Shown: piece after piece, positions 3,068-21,229 of the stretch
How positions within the stretch are numbered: the stretch's first letter is position 1
Layout: the number at the start of each line of letters is the position of its first letter
DNA from: a virus
Lineage: Duplodnaviria; Heunggongvirae; Uroviricota; Caudoviricetes
Virus record (IMG/VR): IMGVR_UViG_2630968639_000008
Strand: one strand, 5' to 3'
DNA length: 33,922 nucleotides
Notes under the pieces: model-generated
Told to the model about the DNA's origin: nothing
Seen by the model: the letters and a program-made list of their open reading frames with translations, nothing else
Database searches by the model: none
Program-made: the position numbers and the translations under genes

Positions 3068-3396
3068 CAGTTCACCACCTGTTCAAACTCTGCGCTGAAC
3101 TCAACACGCAGCATACTGACCCGCGACGACCATTTTGCGCAGGTCACCTTTATCTGCCTGTAACCATAAGGCGGCGTCCACAGAAAGGCCTTCCAGCCCC
3201 CGTGCTCAGCCAGAAACAACTCCAGCGCCGTGGCCTCCTCACGGGAGGCAGACAGCGTCACGCTGTACGTTTTCAGGTCAGCGTTCAGCCCGGCAGGCGC
3301 ACGCTGGGAATAGCCATCACCAAAGCGCACCTTTCTTACAGAAGGGGCCGAAGCCACATCCATACCGGGTTTCACTTTCCAGCGGAAGGTTTTCAT
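3067..3396 (-). CDS. M: Tail assembly protein M
   Basis: 109-aa ORF, same length and position as lambda M; 4-nt overlap with H. Confidence 0.9.
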   Translation of the reverse strand: MKTFRWKVKPGMDVASAPSVRKVRFGDGYSQRAPAGLNADLKTYSVTLSASREEATALELFLAEHGGWKAFLWTPPYGYRQIKVTCAKWSSRVSMLRVEFSAEFEQVVN

Positions 3397-5972
3397 CGTC
3401 CACCTCCGGAGAACAGGCCACCATCACGCATCTGTGTCTGAATTTCATCACGGGCACCCTTGCGGGCCATGTCATACACTGCCTTCATCATCTGTGGACC
3501 TGGCAGACCATTCGTACCGTCGTTCTGAATCACCACGTGATTGTTCTGATTAAAATTAATGCCTTCAGCCCGCCGCATCTGCGCCGGACTTCCGGCACCG
3601 CCCACATAACCACCTTCCGCATAGCCCCGCATCAGGCGGTACAGGTTGCCGACACCAATCCGGCTGGTTGCCTCCTTCGTGAAGACAAATTCACCACGGT
3701 GAACAATCCCCGCTGGCTCATATTTGCCGCCGGTTCCCGTAAATCCCCCGGTCGCAAAATGGAATTTCGCCGCAGCTGCCTGAATGGCTGTACCGCCTGA
3801 CGCGGATGCGCCGCCACCAACAGCCCCGCCAATGGCGCTGCCGATACTCCCGACAATCCCCACCATTGCCTGCTTAAGCAGAATTTCTGTCATCATGGAC
3901 AGCACGGAACGGGTGAAGCTGCGCCAGTTCTGCTCACTGCCGGTCAGCATCGCCGCCATATTCTGTGCAATACCATCAAAGGTCTGCGTGGCAGCACTTT
4001 TAACCTGCGACATACTGTCCGTGGCGCTCTCTTCCCACTCACTCCAGCCGGACTTCAGGCCTGCCATCCAGCTCCCGCGAAGCTGGTCTTCAGCCGCCCA
4101 GGTCTTTTTCTGCTCTGACATGACGTTATTCAGCGCCAGCGGATTATCGCCATACTGTTCCTTCAGGCGCTGTTCCGTGGCTTCCCGTTCTGCCTGCCGG
4201 TCAGTCAGCCCCCGGCTTTTCGCATCAATGGCGGCCCGTTTTGCCCGTTGCTGCTGTGCGAATTTATCCGCCTGCTGCGCCAGCGCGTTCAGGCGCTCCT
4301 GATACGTAACCTTGTCGCCAAGTGCAGCCAGCTGGCGTTTGTACTCCAGCGTCTCATCTTTATGCGCCAGCAGGGATTTCTCCTGTGCAGACAGCTGGCG
4401 ACGTTGCGCCGCCTCCTCCAGTACCGCGAACTGACTCTCCGCCTTCCACAAATCCCGGAGCTGCTGGCTGATTTTCTCATTTGCTCCGGCATGCCTCTCC
4501 AGCGTCCGGAGTTCAGCCTGAAGCGTCAGCAGGGCAGCATGAGCACTGTCTTCCTGACGATCGCCCGCAGACACCTTCACGCCGGACTGTTTCGGCTTTT
4601 TCAGCGTCGCTTCATAATCCTTTTTCGCTGCCGCCATCAGCGTGTTGTAATCTGCCTGCAGGATTTTTCCGTCTTTCAGTGCCTTGTTCAGTTCTTCCTG
4701 ACGGGCGGTATATTTCTCCAGCGGAGTCTGCAGACGTTCGTAAGCCTTCTGCGCCTCTTCGGTATATTTCAGCCGTGATGCCTCAGACTCAGCACGATCT
4801 TTTGCTGCCATCTCACTGGCCTTTTCAAGATCTGCCTGCAATGTGGCGGCTGAAAGACCAAGTTGCGCATTCGCCCTGTCCTCCCATGCGCCACGGAGAT
4901 TGGCAAGAAATGCTGAGGTTTTACCACGCCGGTGGCTCCGGCTCTGATACCACTGCCATTTCTTGTCCGCTTCATCAAAAGCCTTTTCTGCTTTCTCCAG
5001 CATTTCCCGGGCAGTGTCCGGGCGACCAATATCCAGCACCGAATCCCACATGGATTTAAATGCCCGTGCTGTCTTATCTGCCCAGGTCTCCAGCGTGCCC
5101 ATGTTATCTTTCAGGCGGCGGGTCTGGTCATCAAACCCTTTCCTTGCGGCCTCGTTCGCCGCCTGCAATGCCCCGGCTTCATCGCCGGAACGCTGCAACT
5201 GAGCAACATACGCAATCTGCTCCGCTGTCACGTTATGGAACTGGCGCGCCATCGCCGTCAGCCCCGACGTCGGGTCTGTGGTCAGCTTCCCGAAGGCTTC
5301 AGCAACCTTGTCCACCTCCACGCCCGATGCAGAGGAGAAACGCGCCACACTCTGGCTGATCGCCTCAAACTGCTCACCACCACGCACACCGGCATTCACC
5401 AGCGCCGTCAGAGACTCGCTGGTCTGGTTAAACGTCAGCCCTGCCGCCTGCCCGGCTCTGGACAGGACCAGCATACGATCTGCCGTCAGTCCCGCCTGAT
5501 TGCCGGAAAGGACCAGCGTTTTGTTGAAATCGGACAGGGTTGAGTTGCCCTGATACCAGGCATACGCCAGCGCACCGGTCGCCACCGCCAGCGAGGTGGC
5601 CCCCACCATCGGCAGGGTGATCGCACCGGCAAGCCCCCTGAACATGGGGATCATCCCGCCGAAGGAGTCCTTAACCTGACCACCCTGTTGCAGCAGGATC
5701 AGCCACGGACTTTGCCCGCCTGCAAGCTGCGTGGCCACGTCGGTGAACTGTGCAGGCAGCATACGCATGGCGGCTTTATACTGCCCGACGGAAATCCCCG
5801 CTTTCTGTGCAGCCAGCGCCTGTCGGCTCAGCGACTGTTCAACGACTGCCGCTGTTTTTTTCGCATCACTTTCCGTACCGGAAAAATGACGCCTGACTCT
5901 GGCCATCTGCTCGTCAAATCTGGCCGCATCCAGACTCAAATCAACGACCAGATCGCCTACCGGTTCAGCCAT
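3393..5972 (-). CDS. H: Tail tape measure protein H
   Basis: 859-aa ORF, coiled-coil rich with a Gly-rich C-terminal region; N- and C-terminal stretches match recalled lambda H. Numerous antisense ORFs inside it are treated as spurious. Confidence 0.9.
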   Translation of the reverse strand: MAEPVGDLVVDLSLDAARFDEQMARVRRHFSGTESDAKKTAAVVEQSLSRQALAAQKAGISVGQYKAAMRMLPAQFTDVATQLAGGQSPWLILLQQGGQVKDSFGGMIPMFRGLAGAITLPMVGATSLAVATGALAYAWYQGNSTLSDFNKTLVLSGNQAGLTADRMLVLSRAGQAAGLTFNQTSESLTALVNAGVRGGEQFEAISQSVARFSSASGVEVDKVAEAFGKLTTDPTSGLTAMARQFHNVTAEQIAYVAQLQRSGDEAGALQAANEAARKGFDDQTRRLKDNMGTLETWADKTARAFKSMWDSVLDIGRPDTAREMLEKAEKAFDEADKKWQWYQSRSHRRGKTSAFLANLRGAWEDRANAQLGLSAATLQADLEKASEMAAKDRAESEASRLKYTEEAQKAYERLQTPLEKYTARQEELNKALKDGKILQADYNTLMAAAKKDYEATLKKPKQSGVKVSAGDRQEDSAHAALLTLQAELRTLERHAGANEKISQQLRDLWKAESQFAVLEEAAQRRQLSAQEKSLLAHKDETLEYKRQLAALGDKVTYQERLNALAQQADKFAQQQRAKRAAIDAKSRGLTDRQAEREATEQRLKEQYGDNPLALNNVMSEQKKTWAAEDQLRGSWMAGLKSGWSEWEESATDSMSQVKSAATQTFDGIAQNMAAMLTGSEQNWRSFTRSVLSMMTEILLKQAMVGIVGSIGSAIGGAVGGGASASGGTAIQAAAAKFHFATGGFTGTGGKYEPAGIVHRGEFVFTKEATSRIGVGNLYRLMRGYAEGGYVGGAGSPAQMRRAEGINFNQNNHVVIQNDGTNGLPGPQMMKAVYDMARKGARDEIQTQMRDGGLFSGGGR

Positions 5973-6803
5973 ACCGGACTCCTCCTGCGATCCCTTCTGA
6001 TACTGTCATCAGCATTACGTCATCCTCCGTCATGTCCGCCACATCCGGGGAAGCGGGGATAACTTCATTCCCGTCCGGGCCAAAACGAACGCCTCCGGCA
6101 AGCCCTGCCGCTTTCTGCATCAGCACATCATCTTCAGGCTCTTCGTCAGCCTCGCGCCGGTTCAGCAGACTGAAATCCAGCGGATGCATCTCCGGATCGC
6201 TGAAAAACAGGCTGAGCACGGTGTACGTCAGCCCGGAAAAGTGCATATCCAGCAGAACATCATGAAAATAATGGGTACTGTAAAAGCGGTGCCAGTCGGC
6301 ATACTCCGTGGATGACATCCCGGCAAGCATGGCGCGCCAGTCGGGTCGCCCCATCTCACGCGCCAGTTTCAGGGCAAAACTCAGCTCACCGTCGAACACT
6401 TTCCCGCAGAAACAGGCTCTGCAGGCCCGGCGTCCTCTGCCTGTTCAGGAGCATCATTCACCACAAACTCATACATACCGGACAGCCGGTACACCACGTT
6501 TTCAGCATGAGAAATTGCCTCTGTGGGCCAGGTGGTAAGCACTTCCTGCTCAATCTGTTTAACGGCTTCATTCATGGAAGGCAGCTTTGTCTTCTTCGGA
6601 TGGTTATGCCACAGGGACATCGCCACCAGAAACGCGCCGGTTCTGATGGCGTCTTCCACAGTAAACTTCCGGTTGCTGTCTGACTCCGCCTGTTCTGCCT
6701 GCCGTTTCATCAGGTCGAGATGCTCAATACGCTGCAGGGCTGACAGTTCAGAAAGCGTGACGGTCACACCGTTATGTTCAAATGATTCGGTTTTCAGGAA
6801 CAT
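5965..6803 (-). CDS. T: Tail assembly chaperone G-T fusion made by programmed -1 ribosomal frameshift
   Basis: The -1 frame ORF 5965..6399 overlaps the 3' end of G; slippery heptamer GGGAAAG lies at minus-strand 6405..6399, 16 nt before the G stop; the -1 reading continues as ...FDGELSFALKLAREMG (the T domain). Confidence 0.8.
6381..6803 (-). CDS. G: Tail assembly chaperone G
   Basis: 140-aa ORF MFLKTESFEHNGVTVTLSEL...SAGKCSTVS, matching lambda G in length and sequence. Confidence 0.9.
   Translation of the reverse strand: MFLKTESFEHNGVTVTLSELSALQRIEHLDLMKRQAEQAESDSNRKFTVEDAIRTGAFLVAMSLWHNHPKKTKLPSMNEAVKQIEQEVLTTWPTEAISHAENVVYRLSGMYEFVVNDAPEQAEDAGPAEPVSAGKCSTVS
6399..6405 (-). other. Slippery heptamer G_GGA_AAG for the G/G-T -1 frameshift
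   Basis: Plus strand reads CTTTCCC at 6399-6405, i.e. GGGAAAG on the coding strand, in the 0 frame as G GGA AAG. Confidence 0.8.
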
Positions 6804-6818
6804 CGCTGACTCTCCGGA

Positions 6819-7559
6819 TTAACTGGCGGTGACGTTGATTTCTGCAACCGCAGCAAACTCACCATTACCAGATACGACCGGAATGTTGACCTTGCCTGCA
6901 GCAACACCTTTCACGGTGATGGTCATACCACTGACCGACACGGTGGCTTTTGTTTTATCCGCAGACACCGCACGGAAGCTCTTGTCGGTTGCGCCATCCG
7001 GCTGGAATGCCACGGTCAGCGTGGTGCTCTGCCCTTTCACTACGGAAGCACTGGCGGGTGTCACCGTCATGCCGGTCGTCGCCGTCACCGTGCTGCGATC
7101 TTCTGCCATCGACGGACGTCCCACATTGGTGACCTTCACCGTGCGGGTAATCACTTCCTTCGCCGTCACCGCCTTACCGATACTGCTGACCCAGCCACGG
7201 AACACATCGACCGTGCCGTTCGGGAAGCGGATTTTATAGGCACGGGTATCACCTTCATTAAACCACGCCAGCAGCGCCTGCTGCCCCTGCTCTCCGGGCA
7301 TCCACGCCAGCGTGAAGCTGGTATCTCCGGCAGATTTCTGCCCCTGCCCGGTCGCAGTCCAGTCTGCATCTTCATCATCGAGATAGCTGTCGTCATAGGA
7401 CTCAGCGGTCAGTTCGCCGGGCGTCAGGTCTTTAACTTTTGCCAGACGCGACCAGTCAACGTCTGAAAGCGGATTCGCATAAGGGTCACCGCTTCCCTTA
7501 TAAACCCACAGGGTGGTCCCGGCACCTTTCACCGGCATTACAGGATTTGGTACAGGCAT
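6819..7559 (-). CDS. V: Major tail tube protein V
   Basis: Track ORF trimmed to ATG at 7559 ([16 protein letters not shown]...), 246 aa as in lambda V; C-terminal Ig-like region present. Confidence 0.9.
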
Positions 7560-7566
7560 AGCGTCC

Positions 7567-7962
7567 TCACATTTCATAGGTAATGACATAAGTCAGATCG
7601 GCTGAACTCCACAGGCCCGCATCATCGTCGCGCCGGTAGTCATAGCCGCTGGCCACCATACTGGTGATCAAATCTGACAGTGCCGGGATATCGCTCATCA
7701 CCGGATAAATCCGGGACTCCATCCACGCATCCAGCTCTGAATCCGGCACCTGAGCAGGCAGGAAAACTTCAATATGCAGCTCCGCCTGCCAGGTATCGCT
7801 GTCCAGCTCTTCGCCCGTGTATTCAGCGCCGGTGAGATAAACGGCAATTGCCGGAAAATCTTCCTCATCAAAAACAGCGGGGCGACCATCAAAAAGCGTC
7901 GCCCCGGTGTCATGCTTCTCCAGTGCATCCAGTACGGCTGCACGGAGTTCAGTATGTTTCAT
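7567..7962 (-). CDS. U: Tail terminator protein U
   Basis: 131-aa ORF matching lambda U in length and position. Confidence 0.9.
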
Positions 7963-9353: not shown

Positions 9354-10379
9354 TTACGCCAGTTGAACGGCCACGAACTCATCAGGATCAGCCAGCAGCA
9401 TCAGCGGTGCTGACTGAATCATGGTGAACTCTCGCGCCGGATCGCCGGATGTCTTCCAGTTTTTCGGATAACGGGGAGACGCATTAATACCCTCACTCAA
9501 TGCATCCGCATCCTGAATACAGCCATAGGTGCGCAGACCGCGTGCCTGAGTGTTCCCCAGCACCATCGTGTTGTCCGGCAGGAAGTTCTTTTTGACGCCG
9601 TTTTCCACGTACTGTCCGGAATACACGACGATGGCCACATCGCCATACATCCCCTTATAGGACACCGCTTTACCCAGGTCTTTCACCGCTGTCTCCAGCT
9701 CGGAATGAGAGCCACGACGGGTATCCAGCTTCTCCCTGACGGCTTTGAAGGAACGGAACAGCGCCCAGCCTTTCGGATCGAACACGATGATATTCACCAC
9801 ACCGCTGGCGTTCAGCGCGTAGGCTTCGATATCGTCGGTCGGGTCATACGTGGACTTGTCACGCTTGCTCCACTCCGTGCCGCCGGACTGCGTGATGTTA
9901 TTCTCCTCACTGCGGCCCATATCCACCTCAACCGGATCGAAGGCTTCACCGGTCATGGTGTATTTGCCCTTAAGCACGGCAGAAACTGCCTGCATCTCTT
10001 CGACCTGAGCAATGGCCAGCTCTTCGTCACGCATGTTCTGCATGATGATGCGACGGCGGCGGTAAGCCGGGTCCGCCAGATTCTGCGGATCTTCATCCGG
10101 CAGGCGACGCAGGGTCATCTGCGGATTCACTTCATGCTTCGGCTTGACATATCCCGGCGTAAATTCAGAGGTGGAGCCGCCACGGGAACGGATAACCTCA
10201 CCGGAAACAATCGGCGAAACGTACAGCGCCATGTTTACCAGTCCCGGAATTTGTGAGAGATAGACTTTCTCCGTGGTGAAGGGATAGCTCTCACGGAAAA
10301 AGAGACGCAGAAACAGCGGATCAAACTTAAATTTCTGCTCATTTGCCGCCAGCAGCTGGGCGGTTGTGTACATCGACAT
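9354..10379 (-). CDS. E: Major capsid protein E
   Basis: Trimmed to ATG at 10379 (MSMYTTAQLLAANEQKF...), 341 aa, matching lambda E. Confidence 0.9.
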   Translation of the reverse strand: MSMYTTAQLLAANEQKFKFDPLFLRLFFRESYPFTTEKVYLSQIPGLVNMALYVSPIVSGEVIRSRGGSTSEFTPGYVKPKHEVNPQMTLRRLPDEDPQNLADPAYRRRRIIMQNMRDEELAIAQVEEMQAVSAVLKGKYTMTGEAFDPVEVDMGRSEENNITQSGGTEWSKRDKSTYDPTDDIEAYALNASGVVNIIVFDPKGWALFRSFKAVREKLDTRRGSHSELETAVKDLGKAVSYKGMYGDVAIVVYSGQYVENGVKKNFLPDNTMVLGNTQARGLRTYGCIQDADALSEGINASPRYPKNWKTSGDPAREFTMIQSAPLMLLADPDEFVAVQLA

Positions 10380-10434
10380 AAAAAAATCCCGTAAAAAAAG
10401 CCGCACAGGCGGCCTTTAGTGATGAAGGGTAAAG

Positions 10435-17593: not shown

Positions 17594-18055
17594 CTATCTG
17601 CACTGCTCATTAATATACTTCTGGGTTCCTTCCAGTTGTTTTTGCATAGTGATCAGCCTCTCTCTGAGGGTGAAATAATCCCATTCAGCGGTGTCTGCCA
17701 GTCGGGGGGAGGCTGCATTATCCACGCCGGAGGCGGTGGTGGCTTCACGCACTGACTGACAGACTGCTTTGATGTGCAACCGACGACGACCAGCGGCAAC
17801 ATCATCACGCAGAGCATCATTTTCAGCTTTCGCATTAGCTAACTCCTTCGTGTATTTTTCATCCAGTGCAGCAACATCACGCTGGCGCATCTGCATGTCA
17901 GTAATTGCCGCGTTCGCCAGCTTCAGTTCTCTGGCATTTTTGTCGCGCTGGGCTTTGTAGGTAATGGCGTTATCACGGTAATGATTAACAGCCCATGACA
18001 GGCAGACGATGATGCAGATAACCAGAGCGGAGATAATCGCGGTTACTCTGTTCAT
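17594..18055 (-). CDS. Rz: Spanin inner-membrane subunit Rz
   Basis: 153-aa ORF with an N-terminal TM segment and coiled coil; matches lambda Rz; ATGA overlap with R. Confidence 0.9.
17653..17835 (-). CDS. Rz1: Spanin outer-membrane lipoprotein Rz1 (embedded in the +1 frame of Rz)
   Basis: 60-aa [26 protein letters not shown]... with lipobox (VVGC) and a proline-rich stretch, lying wholly inside Rz. Confidence 0.85.
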
Positions 18056-18549
18056 TGCTTACCCCACAAACAGATTTCACGCTCAATCTCACGACGAGTC
18101 ATGAGACCTTTCCATTGCTTACCGCCAGCATATGTCCAGCGACGTAGCTGATCACATGCGCCTTTGATATCACCCTGGTTTATTTTGCGAAGAAGCGTCG
18201 ATATTCTGAAATTGCCAGCACCCACGTTGTAGACGAACGAGTAAAGAGCGCCGCGCGTTGTTTCCGGTATATCGACTTTGATGTACGGGTTAATTTGTCT
18301 GGCGACAGTGGCAAGGTCTTTATTCAGGAGGGCTTTGCATTCTGCTTCGGTATACGTTTTACCGGGAATGATGTCTTTTCCTGTATGCCCGTGACATACA
18401 GTCCATACGCCAACGATATCTTTATATGGTATGTAGCTGACACCTTCCAGACCATCGTCACCACTCGGACCAGTGATGAGCACAGACGCTATGGCAACAG
18501 CCCCACCACCAATAGCAGCTGCTACAGCCTTGCGTAATGATGGCGACAT
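18052..18549 (-). CDS. R: SAR endolysin (phage 21 R-type lysozyme)
   Basis: 165 aa; N-terminal Gly/Ala-rich weakly hydrophobic segment ([20 protein letters not shown]) typical of a signal-anchor-release domain, followed by a lysozyme core with the E...D...T motif region ([24 protein letters not shown]). Not the lambda R transglycosylase. Confidence 0.85.
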
Positions 18550-18909: not shown

Positions 18910-19336
18910 AAGCTGTGTGACGAAGTAACCACTCTTAACAGCATAACCAATTTTTTACGTACGTAAACCACTAAATGATATTTGCGAGAATGCTACCGAG
19001 TATTGAAAACACCACTACAAATACATAAGCAAATCTCAACAAATAACCAACAAATAATTTCCAGTGTTATTTTCAGCCGGTTTAAATTGAACCTTCAAAT
19101 TATAGAGCACTTATAAATAACAGCCGTTAATATAAATTGGCTAATAGATTTATTTTTATTCAGCCAAGAGCCATGAATAGGATTCGATAGAAAAAAGTTC
19201 AGATAAAAATAGAGATCTACTTCACAAATCAAACGAGAAACCAAAACTTACATCTTGAAATAATCACATTGATTAGATGAATATTTATCGCGCAGTGACA
19301 TCATTTTTTAATAATAGTTCAAAAAAAGGGCTCACG

Positions 19337-20434
19337 ATGAAAAAATTAACAGTGGCAATTTCTGCTGTAGCTGCATCAGTACTGATGGCGATGTCTGCTC
19401 AGGCAGCTGAAATTTATAATAAAGACAGTAACAAGCTGGATCTGTACGGGAAAGTTAATGCTAAGCACTACTTCTCCTCTAATGATGCAGATGATGGTGA
19501 TACTACTTATGCCCGTCTTGGCTTCAAAGGTGAAACCCAAATCAACGATCAACTGACTGGTTTCGGTCAGTGGGAATATGAATTCAAAGGCAACCGCGCT
19601 GAATCTCAAGGTTCCTCCAAAGATAAAACCCGTCTTGCCTTCGCTGGCCTGAAATTCGGTGACTACGGCTCCATCGATTACGGCCGTAACTACGGTGTAG
19701 CATACGACATCGGTGCGTGGACTGACGTCCTGCCAGAATTCGGTGGTGACACTTGGACTCAAACCGACGTGTTCATGACTCAACGTGCAACTGGTGTTGC
19801 AACCTATCGTAACAACGACTTCTTTGGTCTGGTTGATGGTCTGAATTTTGCTGCTCAGTACCAAGGCAAAAACGATCGTAGCGATTTCGATAACTACACT
19901 GAAGGTAACGGTGATGGCTTCGGTTTCTCTGCTACCTATGAATACGAAGGATTCGGTATCGGTGCAACTTATGCGAAATCTGATCGTACCGACACTCAAG
20001 TTAATGCAGGGAAAGTTCTTCCTGAAGTATTTGCTTCCGGTAAAAATGCAGAAGTTTGGGCCGCAGGTCTGAAATATGACGCTAACAACATTTACCTGGC
20101 CACTACCTATTCTGAAACCCAGAATATGACTGTATTTGCTGATCACTTCGTTGCTAATAAAGCCCAAAACTTCGAAGCTGTTGCACAATATCAGTTCGAT
20201 TTCGGTCTGCGTCCGTCCGTTGCTTACCTGCAATCTAAAGGTAAGGATCTTGGAGTATGGGGCGATCAGGACTTAGTCAAATATGTTGATGTAGGTGCAA
20301 CCTATTACTTCAACAAAAATATGTCTACTTTCGTTGATTACAAAATCAACCTGCTTGACAAAAATGACTTCACTAAAGCACTCGGTGTAAGCACTGATGA
20401 CATCGTTGCTGTAGGTCTGGTTTACCAGTTCTAA
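19337..20434 (+). CDS. OmpC/OmpF-family general porin (prophage NmpC/Lc-type), apparently intact
   Basis: 365 aa from ATG 19337 (track ORF starts upstream): signal peptide [29 protein letters not shown], porin beta-barrel hallmarks, C-terminal ...VGLVYQF; long AT-rich promoter region upstream; antisense to Q and S as in DLP12 nmpC. Confidence 0.85.
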
Positions 20435-20623: not shown

Positions 20624-21007
20624 TTAATTAGAGTTATTAACAACGATATCCATCTCTAACCGGATATCTAATGCCATTAACATCCCTTCAATTATGCCCT
20701 CAGCCTTCTGTAACCTTTTCCCGATATAACCATCAGAGCAGCAATGCTTACCTGCCAGTGACATGAATGTCATACCGACTACATAATAATCTACTAATAA
20801 ATCGTGCAAATCGCTGTTGTTCTTTTTCAGACGGGCCATGCACCCGCAAATGATCATCGCGTCATCGTCACAACATTGCGGGCGAGATTTTACTTTTGAA
20901 GTAATTAATCCCTTAAAACCGGCGGCAATGGACGACCAGGTCACATCTTCATGATTATTAGCCGCCCACGCTCCCCAACGCTCAAGAACCATCTGAATAT
21001 CACGCAT
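20624..21007 (-). CDS. Q: Late-gene antiterminator Q (phage 82 / DLP12 QuuD-like)
   Basis: Trimmed to ATG 21007 ([21 protein letters not shown]...), 127 aa, Cys-rich ([27 protein letters not shown]); upstream of the lysis cassette on the same strand. Confidence 0.7.
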
Positions 21008-21229
21008 CAACTTACTCCACAAAAATCAGACCAGAACGCCAATTACAAGCAAAAATCAATAAAACAGTATTAGTTGATTGTTATCTCTGACTTCATACTC
21101 CTGCTCCTGTCAGGGTTTTGGCGTAATTCCTCAGTATTCGGTAATCGGTCAAAACAGAACTGGGGAAACGATATAAGCGCAGGCGCATCCAGCGGTGGCG
21201 AAGAAGTTCTGCCATATAAAACTCAAACA

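Follow-up and report, generated by a model that had tools for sequence, protein, structure and literature searches.

The window, that is, the whole stretch of 33,922 nucleotides that was analysed, is a lambdoid phage in prophage gene order, with its late genes on the minus strand. Its genes succeed one another in the order tail, head, terminase, cos, lysis, porin gene, Q, nin, P/O, immunity and bet/exo. The genes V, G, T and H follow each other in that order on the minus strand, with the major tail gene V on one side of the G/T pair and the tape measure gene H on the other (Table 1). The G product covers 125 of the 126 positions of the PF06894 profile. Translation of G begins at an ATG at position 6803 with a predicted Shine-Dalgarno (SD) duplex of -6.6 kcal/mol, and its zero-frame product has the C-terminus ...PVSAGKCSTVS. 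At the other end of the pair, the start ATG of H overlaps the end of T by 8 nt.

Table 1. Features of the V-G-T-H region, with positions in the window
Feature	Position	Strand	Basis or remark
Gene V, major tail tube protein	7559..6819	minus	Pfam PF16461 and Big_2; lambda-equivalent start ATG 7559
Gene G, tail assembly chaperone gpG, 140 aa	6803..6381	minus	Pfam PF06894 Phage_TAC_2, E 2.3e-59
TAA stop in the -1 (T) frame	6447..6445	minus	upstream limit of the productive -1 zone
Slippery heptamer G GGA AAG (Gly-Lys)	6405..6399	minus	sequence and phase; matches lambda
G stop codon TGA	6383..6381	minus	would be bypassed by ribosomes shifted to -1
T segment, 144 codons, C-terminal domain of predicted gpGT	6399..5965	minus	-1 relative to G; Pfam PF06223 Phage_tail_T, E 2e-14
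Predicted GT fusion CDS, 279 aa	join(6803..6399, 6399..5965)	minus	same architecture as UMO75280.1 of phage 434
Gene H, tape measure protein	5972..3393	minus	Pfam PF06791 and PF09718; SD -10.3 kcal/mol

Two of the mechanically called open reading frames are longer than the genes they contain. The V frame (6819-7589, 256 aa) begins upstream of the lambda-equivalent start; among the V starts, an SD match was found only at ATG 7559 (-5.9 kcal/mol), which gives a protein of 246 aa, the lambda length. The E frame (9354-10406, minus strand, 350 aa) also begins upstream of its lambda-equivalent start.

The G/T locus is common in Escherichia coli, being present in 3,712 of 5,426 complete genomes. Over a 1-kb region, phages PhiR70_1 and 434 are 99.7 to 99.8% identical to the window and lambda-like isolates about 98%, and the G/T region is 100% identical to that of prophages of E. 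coli STEC409 and ETEC1746. The element carrying it is a lambdoid mosaic different from lambda, with a G/T locus closest to those of phage 434 and PhiR70_1. It also differs from lambda by a porin gene near the lysis genes and by the length of H, which is 859 aa in the window and 853 aa as annotated in lambda and phage 434; STEC409 carries the same 2580-nt H gene. An Rfam scan of the whole window (1-33922), slip site included, returned no family at gathering score, and a PDB sequence search with the GT fusion returned no solved relative.

The porin gene is a full-length Gram-negative porin (19277-20434, plus strand; PF00267, E 6e-157) on the strand opposite to the surrounding late genes. It lies between the antiterminator gene Q (20624-21022, minus strand) and the lysis genes R/Rz (17594-18549, minus strand). 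“OmpD” is annotated at this position in related phages, and the gene looks like a lysogenic-conversion “moron”.

Anatomy of the G/T junction

The minus-strand sequence at the junction reads ...CCT GTT TCT GCG GGA AAG TGT TCG ACG GTG AGC TGA in the frame of G. The motif GGGAAAG starts at nucleotide 398 (0-based) of G. As 398 mod 3 = 2, the G frame divides it into G GGA AAG, the X XXY YYZ phase of a slippery heptamer. It is separated from the G stop by the five codons TGT TCG ACG GTG AGC, that is, by 15 nt. The -1 frame opens at 6444, 39 nt upstream of the heptamer, meets no stop until 5965 and continues for 138 aa beyond the G stop. Because a TAA closes this frame immediately upstream (Table 1), a slip could be productive only between 6444 and 6384, and the heptamer sits within this 61-nt overlap of G and the -1 frame. 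The predicted product of a -1 slip would join ...PVSAGK to VFDGELSF... at the junction. The first-pass annotation had described a G GGA AAG slippery heptamer near the end of G, and the heptamer is indeed present there and in phase. Its distance to the stop had been given as 16 nt, which is acceptable, as the first base of the stop is the sixteenth nucleotide past the heptamer. The extension of the -1 frame into T (ORF 5965..6399) was likewise borne out, the ORF being real and matching PF06223. The coordinates of the site had been correct, but the strand had been left unstated; it is the minus strand.

On its own, the motif has no significance in the window: GGGAAAG occurs 7 times against 4.0 +/- 2.1 expected, and at least 7 copies were obtained in 11 of 100 shuffles. 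The specificity of the heptamer comes from its context, not from motif counts. When all mechanical ORFs of at least 80 aa were considered on both strands, 56 in-phase XXXYYYZ heptamers were found, and 3 of these had a long -1 extension past the zero-frame stop. The G site is the only one of the three in a real gene; the other two belong to spurious ORFs, of which one lies inside the terminase gene and the other runs antisense to K/L.

Conservation of the slippery site and search for stimulatory elements

Homologous loci were collected from two sources. Thirteen phage records were picked from a tblastn ranking with G so as to spread over its divergence, and a contig scan with one genome per species gave 49 genome loci, of which 31 were analysed. 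A protein homologue search with G was not informative for conservation, as the 120 matches listed were all at least 86% identical. One phage record (phage 204576) and one genome locus (Shigella flexneri CP182557) were set aside, as G is disrupted in both. For relatives, the strict X XXY YYZ filter was replaced by an in-phase N NNA AAG. In a strict X XXY YYZ scan, the HK225, phi80 and Gifsy-1 types had seemed to lack the site; this was rejected, since G GAA AAG is found at the homologous position.

An in-phase N NNA AAG was present in the short overlap of G and the -1 frame in 34 of 34 relatives (a non-redundant set), with G identities as low as about 30%. Among phage-derived loci, it was found in all 15 that are intact, including the window, lambda and 434 (G identity from 100% to 30%). 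Among genome loci, it was found in 30 of 31, the lone exception being the Shigella locus with a disrupted G (29 aa). The genome loci with the site come from Enterobacter, Atlantibacter, Yokenella, Phytobacter, Morganella, Xenorhabdus, Serratia, Symbiopectobacterium and Citrobacter, among others. The forms seen in relatives are GGGAAAG, GGAAAAG and AAAAAAG, as well as AGAAAAG in Morganella. Away from the site, these G genes show the in-phase pattern at 13 of 1855 codon sites, a background of 0.7% per codon.

The conservation extends to the choice of synonymous codons. The A-site Lys codon of the site is AAG in 34 of 34 cases, compared with 41% elsewhere in the same genes. The same holds for the P-site codon, which is GAA in 23 of 23 cases when it encodes Glu (56% elsewhere) and GGA in 9 of 9 when it encodes Gly (12% elsewhere). 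In an alignment of 28 non-redundant junctions, the AAAG of columns 4 to 7 is invariant (28/28) and the next 11 columns vary freely. Fixed synonymous codons at the site reflect selection acting on the nucleotides and not on the G protein. This constraint on the nucleotides, like the anatomy, homology and conservation of the site, can be read directly from the sequences compared. The distance from the heptamer to the G stop is 15, 3 or 0 nt in relatives; as it varies, it is the slippery element that is held and not the context of the stop. In diverged relatives the zero-frame stop follows 0 or 3 nt past the heptamer, for example A GAA AAG TAA in Morganella morganii, which implies that the C-terminal tail of gpG after the slip site is dispensable and variable.

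Two further observations concern the loci collected. The disrupted G homologues are a 76-aa ORF with a frameshift in phage 204576 and a 29-aa ORF in Shigella flexneri CP182557, which suggests decaying prophages. A G about 96% identical to that of the window (lambda's own is 95.7% identical) was also found on contigs of unrelated genera, such as Neobacillus, Oceanobacillus, Kitasatospora, Leeuwenhoekiella, Shewanella, Pseudomonas, Chromatium and others. Coverage is very low (about 1x) for many of these contigs, and some are of whole-phage size (about 48.4-48.5 kb). They most likely represent lambda DNA contamination or spike-in of the assemblies.

We also looked for elements that could stimulate slippage. 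Upstream, no GGAGG-like element was found in the 20 nt before the heptamer (CCUGCAGAGCCUGUUUCUGC), and anti-SD pairing is possible only via the GGGA of the heptamer itself. Downstream, a single-sequence fold of 100 nt reached -40.6 kcal/mol (z -1.99, 7/200 shuffles), with its first pair 8 nt past the heptamer; a fold with the heptamer at its centre did not stand out from shuffles (z +0.36). Three helices were kept in an alignment of 11 sequences, with a weak covariation signal. On the 28 non-redundant junctions, RNAalifold gave no consensus structure (-1.5 kcal/mol), and pairs changed on both sides numbered 5, against 4.6 +/- 0.7 in shuffles (296/500). Several of the predicted pairs are broken in 8 to 10 of the 28 sequences. 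A downstream stimulatory structure was therefore rejected as an established part of the site, the 28-sequence set giving it no support save for one covarying unit of 3 bp, which is retained as a weak lead. This unit pairs T codon 4 (6390..6388, minus strand) with T codon 26 (6324..6322, minus strand), in alignment columns 16-18 and 82-84. Its states are GGY~GCC, AGY~GCU, CGG~UCG and CGU~GCG, reached via amino-acid-changing substitutions. That a short long-range helix between these two codons, extended to about 6 bp, might modestly tune frameshift efficiency in lambdoid phages is an idea we consider improbable. That no conserved structure was found is not an objection to frameshifting, since the comparative data are already explained by a conserved heptamer.

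Expression of T and alternative explanations

Judged on its sequence, the site is, with a probability of about 0.96, a programmed -1 ribosomal frameshift of lambda-type chaperone genes G/T, in a lambda-like E. coli phage or prophage. No feature of the sequence speaks against this reading. The first-pass annotation had called it a conserved programmed -1 site for G/G-T, and this description holds up: position and synonymous codons are kept in diverged relatives, and the site is identical in lambda and 434. Three other explanations were weighed.

The best placed of these takes T as an independent gene, initiated at GTG 6399 or ATG 6354, with the heptamer incidental. A nominal GTG of the T frame does exist at 6399, its first base being the last base of the heptamer, and both RefSeq/PGAP and NC_001416 annotate a stand-alone CDS from it; phage Turner has T annotated from an ATG at codon 16. 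However, the SD pairing available to this GTG (-4.3 kcal/mol) is provided solely by the heptamer's own GGGA, 2 nt away, and the next three ATGs of the T frame score from -1.9 to -2.3 kcal/mol, ATG 6354 being at -2.3. No credible SD was found before in-frame starts over T codons 1 to 120, where all candidates were weak or mis-spaced. For comparison, G, H, Z, FII, M and L of the window have SD energies of -6.6 to -10.8 kcal/mol. The real genes U and D are also weakly scored (-3.3 and -4.7), so a weak SD is not by itself decisive against a start at the T GTG.

The relatives also speak against an independent start. In place of the junction GTG they have GTC, GCC or GCA, and several lineages have no ATG, GTG or TTG in the T frame before codon 10, 16 or 24. 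Nevertheless, T-frame residues are conserved from the junction on (..ELxFxxxLAREfxRxDWRxMLxxM..). As these conserved residues precede any start codon, they could be translated only by ribosomes arriving from G. An independent T would also leave the fixed synonymous codons of the G frame at the heptamer unexplained, and the literature (Levin 1993, as cited in PMC3296357) ascribes T expression to frameshifting. Given the weak SD and a GTG that is not conserved, independent initiation of T is unlikely, and as an explanation of the locus as a whole we regard it as very improbable. The earlier statement that the T ORF has no conventional start thus stands as far as a usable SD and a conserved GTG are concerned; it does not stand for the nominal GTG at 6399, which exists and is used by the lambda and RefSeq annotations.

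Records of related phages differ in how T is annotated. It is a separate GTG-start CDS in the lambda RefSeq entry NC_001416 and in PGAP annotations, it begins at an internal ATG in phage Turner and in the CP-1639 type, and a joined GT CDS is given in only some records, such as that of 434.

A second explanation is that the G-T fusion originates with RNA polymerase, slipping on the A run during transcription, and not with the ribosome. There is a short homopolymer at the site, with six A's in some relatives (AAAAAAG, CP-1639 type). Efficient slippage of RNA polymerase, however, needs runs of about 7 or more; in the window there are just three G's followed by three A's, and the A run is four long in 23 of 34 relatives. 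Conservation falls on the phase of reading (N NNA AAG) and on the Lys codon AAG, which fits tRNA re-pairing and not run length. Transcriptional slippage does yield two protein forms in other systems (PMC4256274). The frameshift level in lambda responds to the modification of tRNA-Lys at U34 (PMC3296357). We give this explanation hardly any credence. The last, that the heptamer is there by chance and that G and T overlap through ordinary translational coupling or an artefact of annotation, is effectively refuted already: the motif count in the window would agree with it, but no other in-phase heptamer of a real gene has a long -1 extension, the site is kept at the homologous position in all intact relatives far above the per-codon background, and its codon choice is fixed.

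The lambda model and related systems

Programmed frameshifting at this site is well documented in lambda. When the window, phage 434 and lambda (NC_001416) are aligned over 141 nt, the three do not differ in the heptamer or in the next 64 nt. Compared with lambda over this stretch, the window has 4 substitutions upstream of the heptamer and 1 at 65 nt downstream. The proteins are 95.7% (G) and 99.3% (T) identical to those of lambda, and the heptamer, its phase, the 15-nt spacer to TGA, the 279-aa fusion and the V-G-T-H order are all shared. The phage 434 record carries a two-piece joined “tape measure protein chaperone” CDS (UMO75280.1) at exactly the same place. All features of the lambda G/GT frameshift that can be read from sequence are present in the window. 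By its sequence, the window site is the G/GT frameshift element of lambda itself, in a close relative of lambda, and is as such already known (Levin 1993; Xu 2004).

GGGAAAG is named as the lambda G/GT site in Table 1 of PMC3296357 and in PMC7618472; the body text of PMC3296357 misprints it as GGGTTTG. According to PMC3296357, which cites Levin et al. 1993, frameshifting on GGGAAAG in lambda yields gpGT in about 4% of translations, and about 96% stay in the zero frame. The tRNA-Lys involved (mnm5s2UUU) reads AAA as well as AAG; when it is hypomodified, slippage goes up and the phage yield goes down (PMC3296357, PMC7618472). In lambda, the tape measure protein is the binding partner of gpG and of the G part of gpGT, and the major tail protein that of the T domain; the G:GT ratio is about 30:1, and the virion contains neither gpG nor gpGT (PMC5009743). 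That the fusion protein is made rests on lambda experiments, for which PMC3296357, PMC5009743 and PMC7618472 all cite Levin et al. 1993.

As these experiments were done on an identical sequence, slippage, its rate and the roles of the chaperones in the window are proposed by analogy with them. Most ribosomes would keep their frame through G GGA AAG and terminate five codons further on, producing gpG. A small fraction, about 4% in lambda, would move one base back with tRNA-Gly on GGA in the P site and tRNA-Lys on AAG in the A site. The tRNA-Gly would then re-pair from GGA to GGG and the tRNA-Lys from AAG to AAA. The slipped ribosomes would read GTG TTC GAC ... in the T frame and produce gpGT, and T would not be translated separately. 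As described for lambda, gpG and the G part of gpGT would coat the tape measure protein H and the T domain would recruit the major tail protein V. The ratio of about 30:1, set by the slip frequency, would be required for correct tail assembly, with both proteins absent from the virion. In relatives with G GAA AAG, we suggest that the P-site tRNA-Glu would re-pair from GAA to GGA, with a U-G wobble in the middle position.

The arrangement is described as widely conserved in long-tailed phages in PMC5009743 and PMC10885494, the latter citing Xu et al. 2004. Within this class of double-stranded DNA phage chaperones (N15/HK225 gp14-15, phi80 and Gifsy-1 types), the window shares two overlapping ORFs between the major tail and tape measure genes, a slippery sequence near the end of the first ORF and a second ORF in the -1 frame. 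The N15/HK225, phi80 and Gifsy-1 types differ from it in using G GAA AAG or A AAA AAG, in having in some cases the stop after 0 to 3 nt, compared with 15 in the window, and in a G identity to the window of only 30 to 50%. A further comparison can be made with the dnaX gene of E. coli (A AAA AAG), with which the site has in common the slip of tRNA-Lys from AAG to AAA in the A site of X XXY YYZ. The -1 frameshift of dnaX has an SD-like element upstream and a hairpin downstream, and its efficiency is about 50%, compared with about 4% in lambda. At the window site, by contrast, there is no SD-like element in the roughly 20 nt upstream, and no conserved hairpin was found downstream.

The window adds nothing new on the mechanism of frameshifting, and its practical value lies in annotation, since the joined GT CDS is missing from many records, including RefSeq. 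The correct gene model would be G plus a joined G-T CDS as given in Table 1, and not a free-standing T. The biology it would serve is that of the textbooks, in which the frequency of the slip fixes the ratio of the two chaperone forms needed for a tail of correct length.
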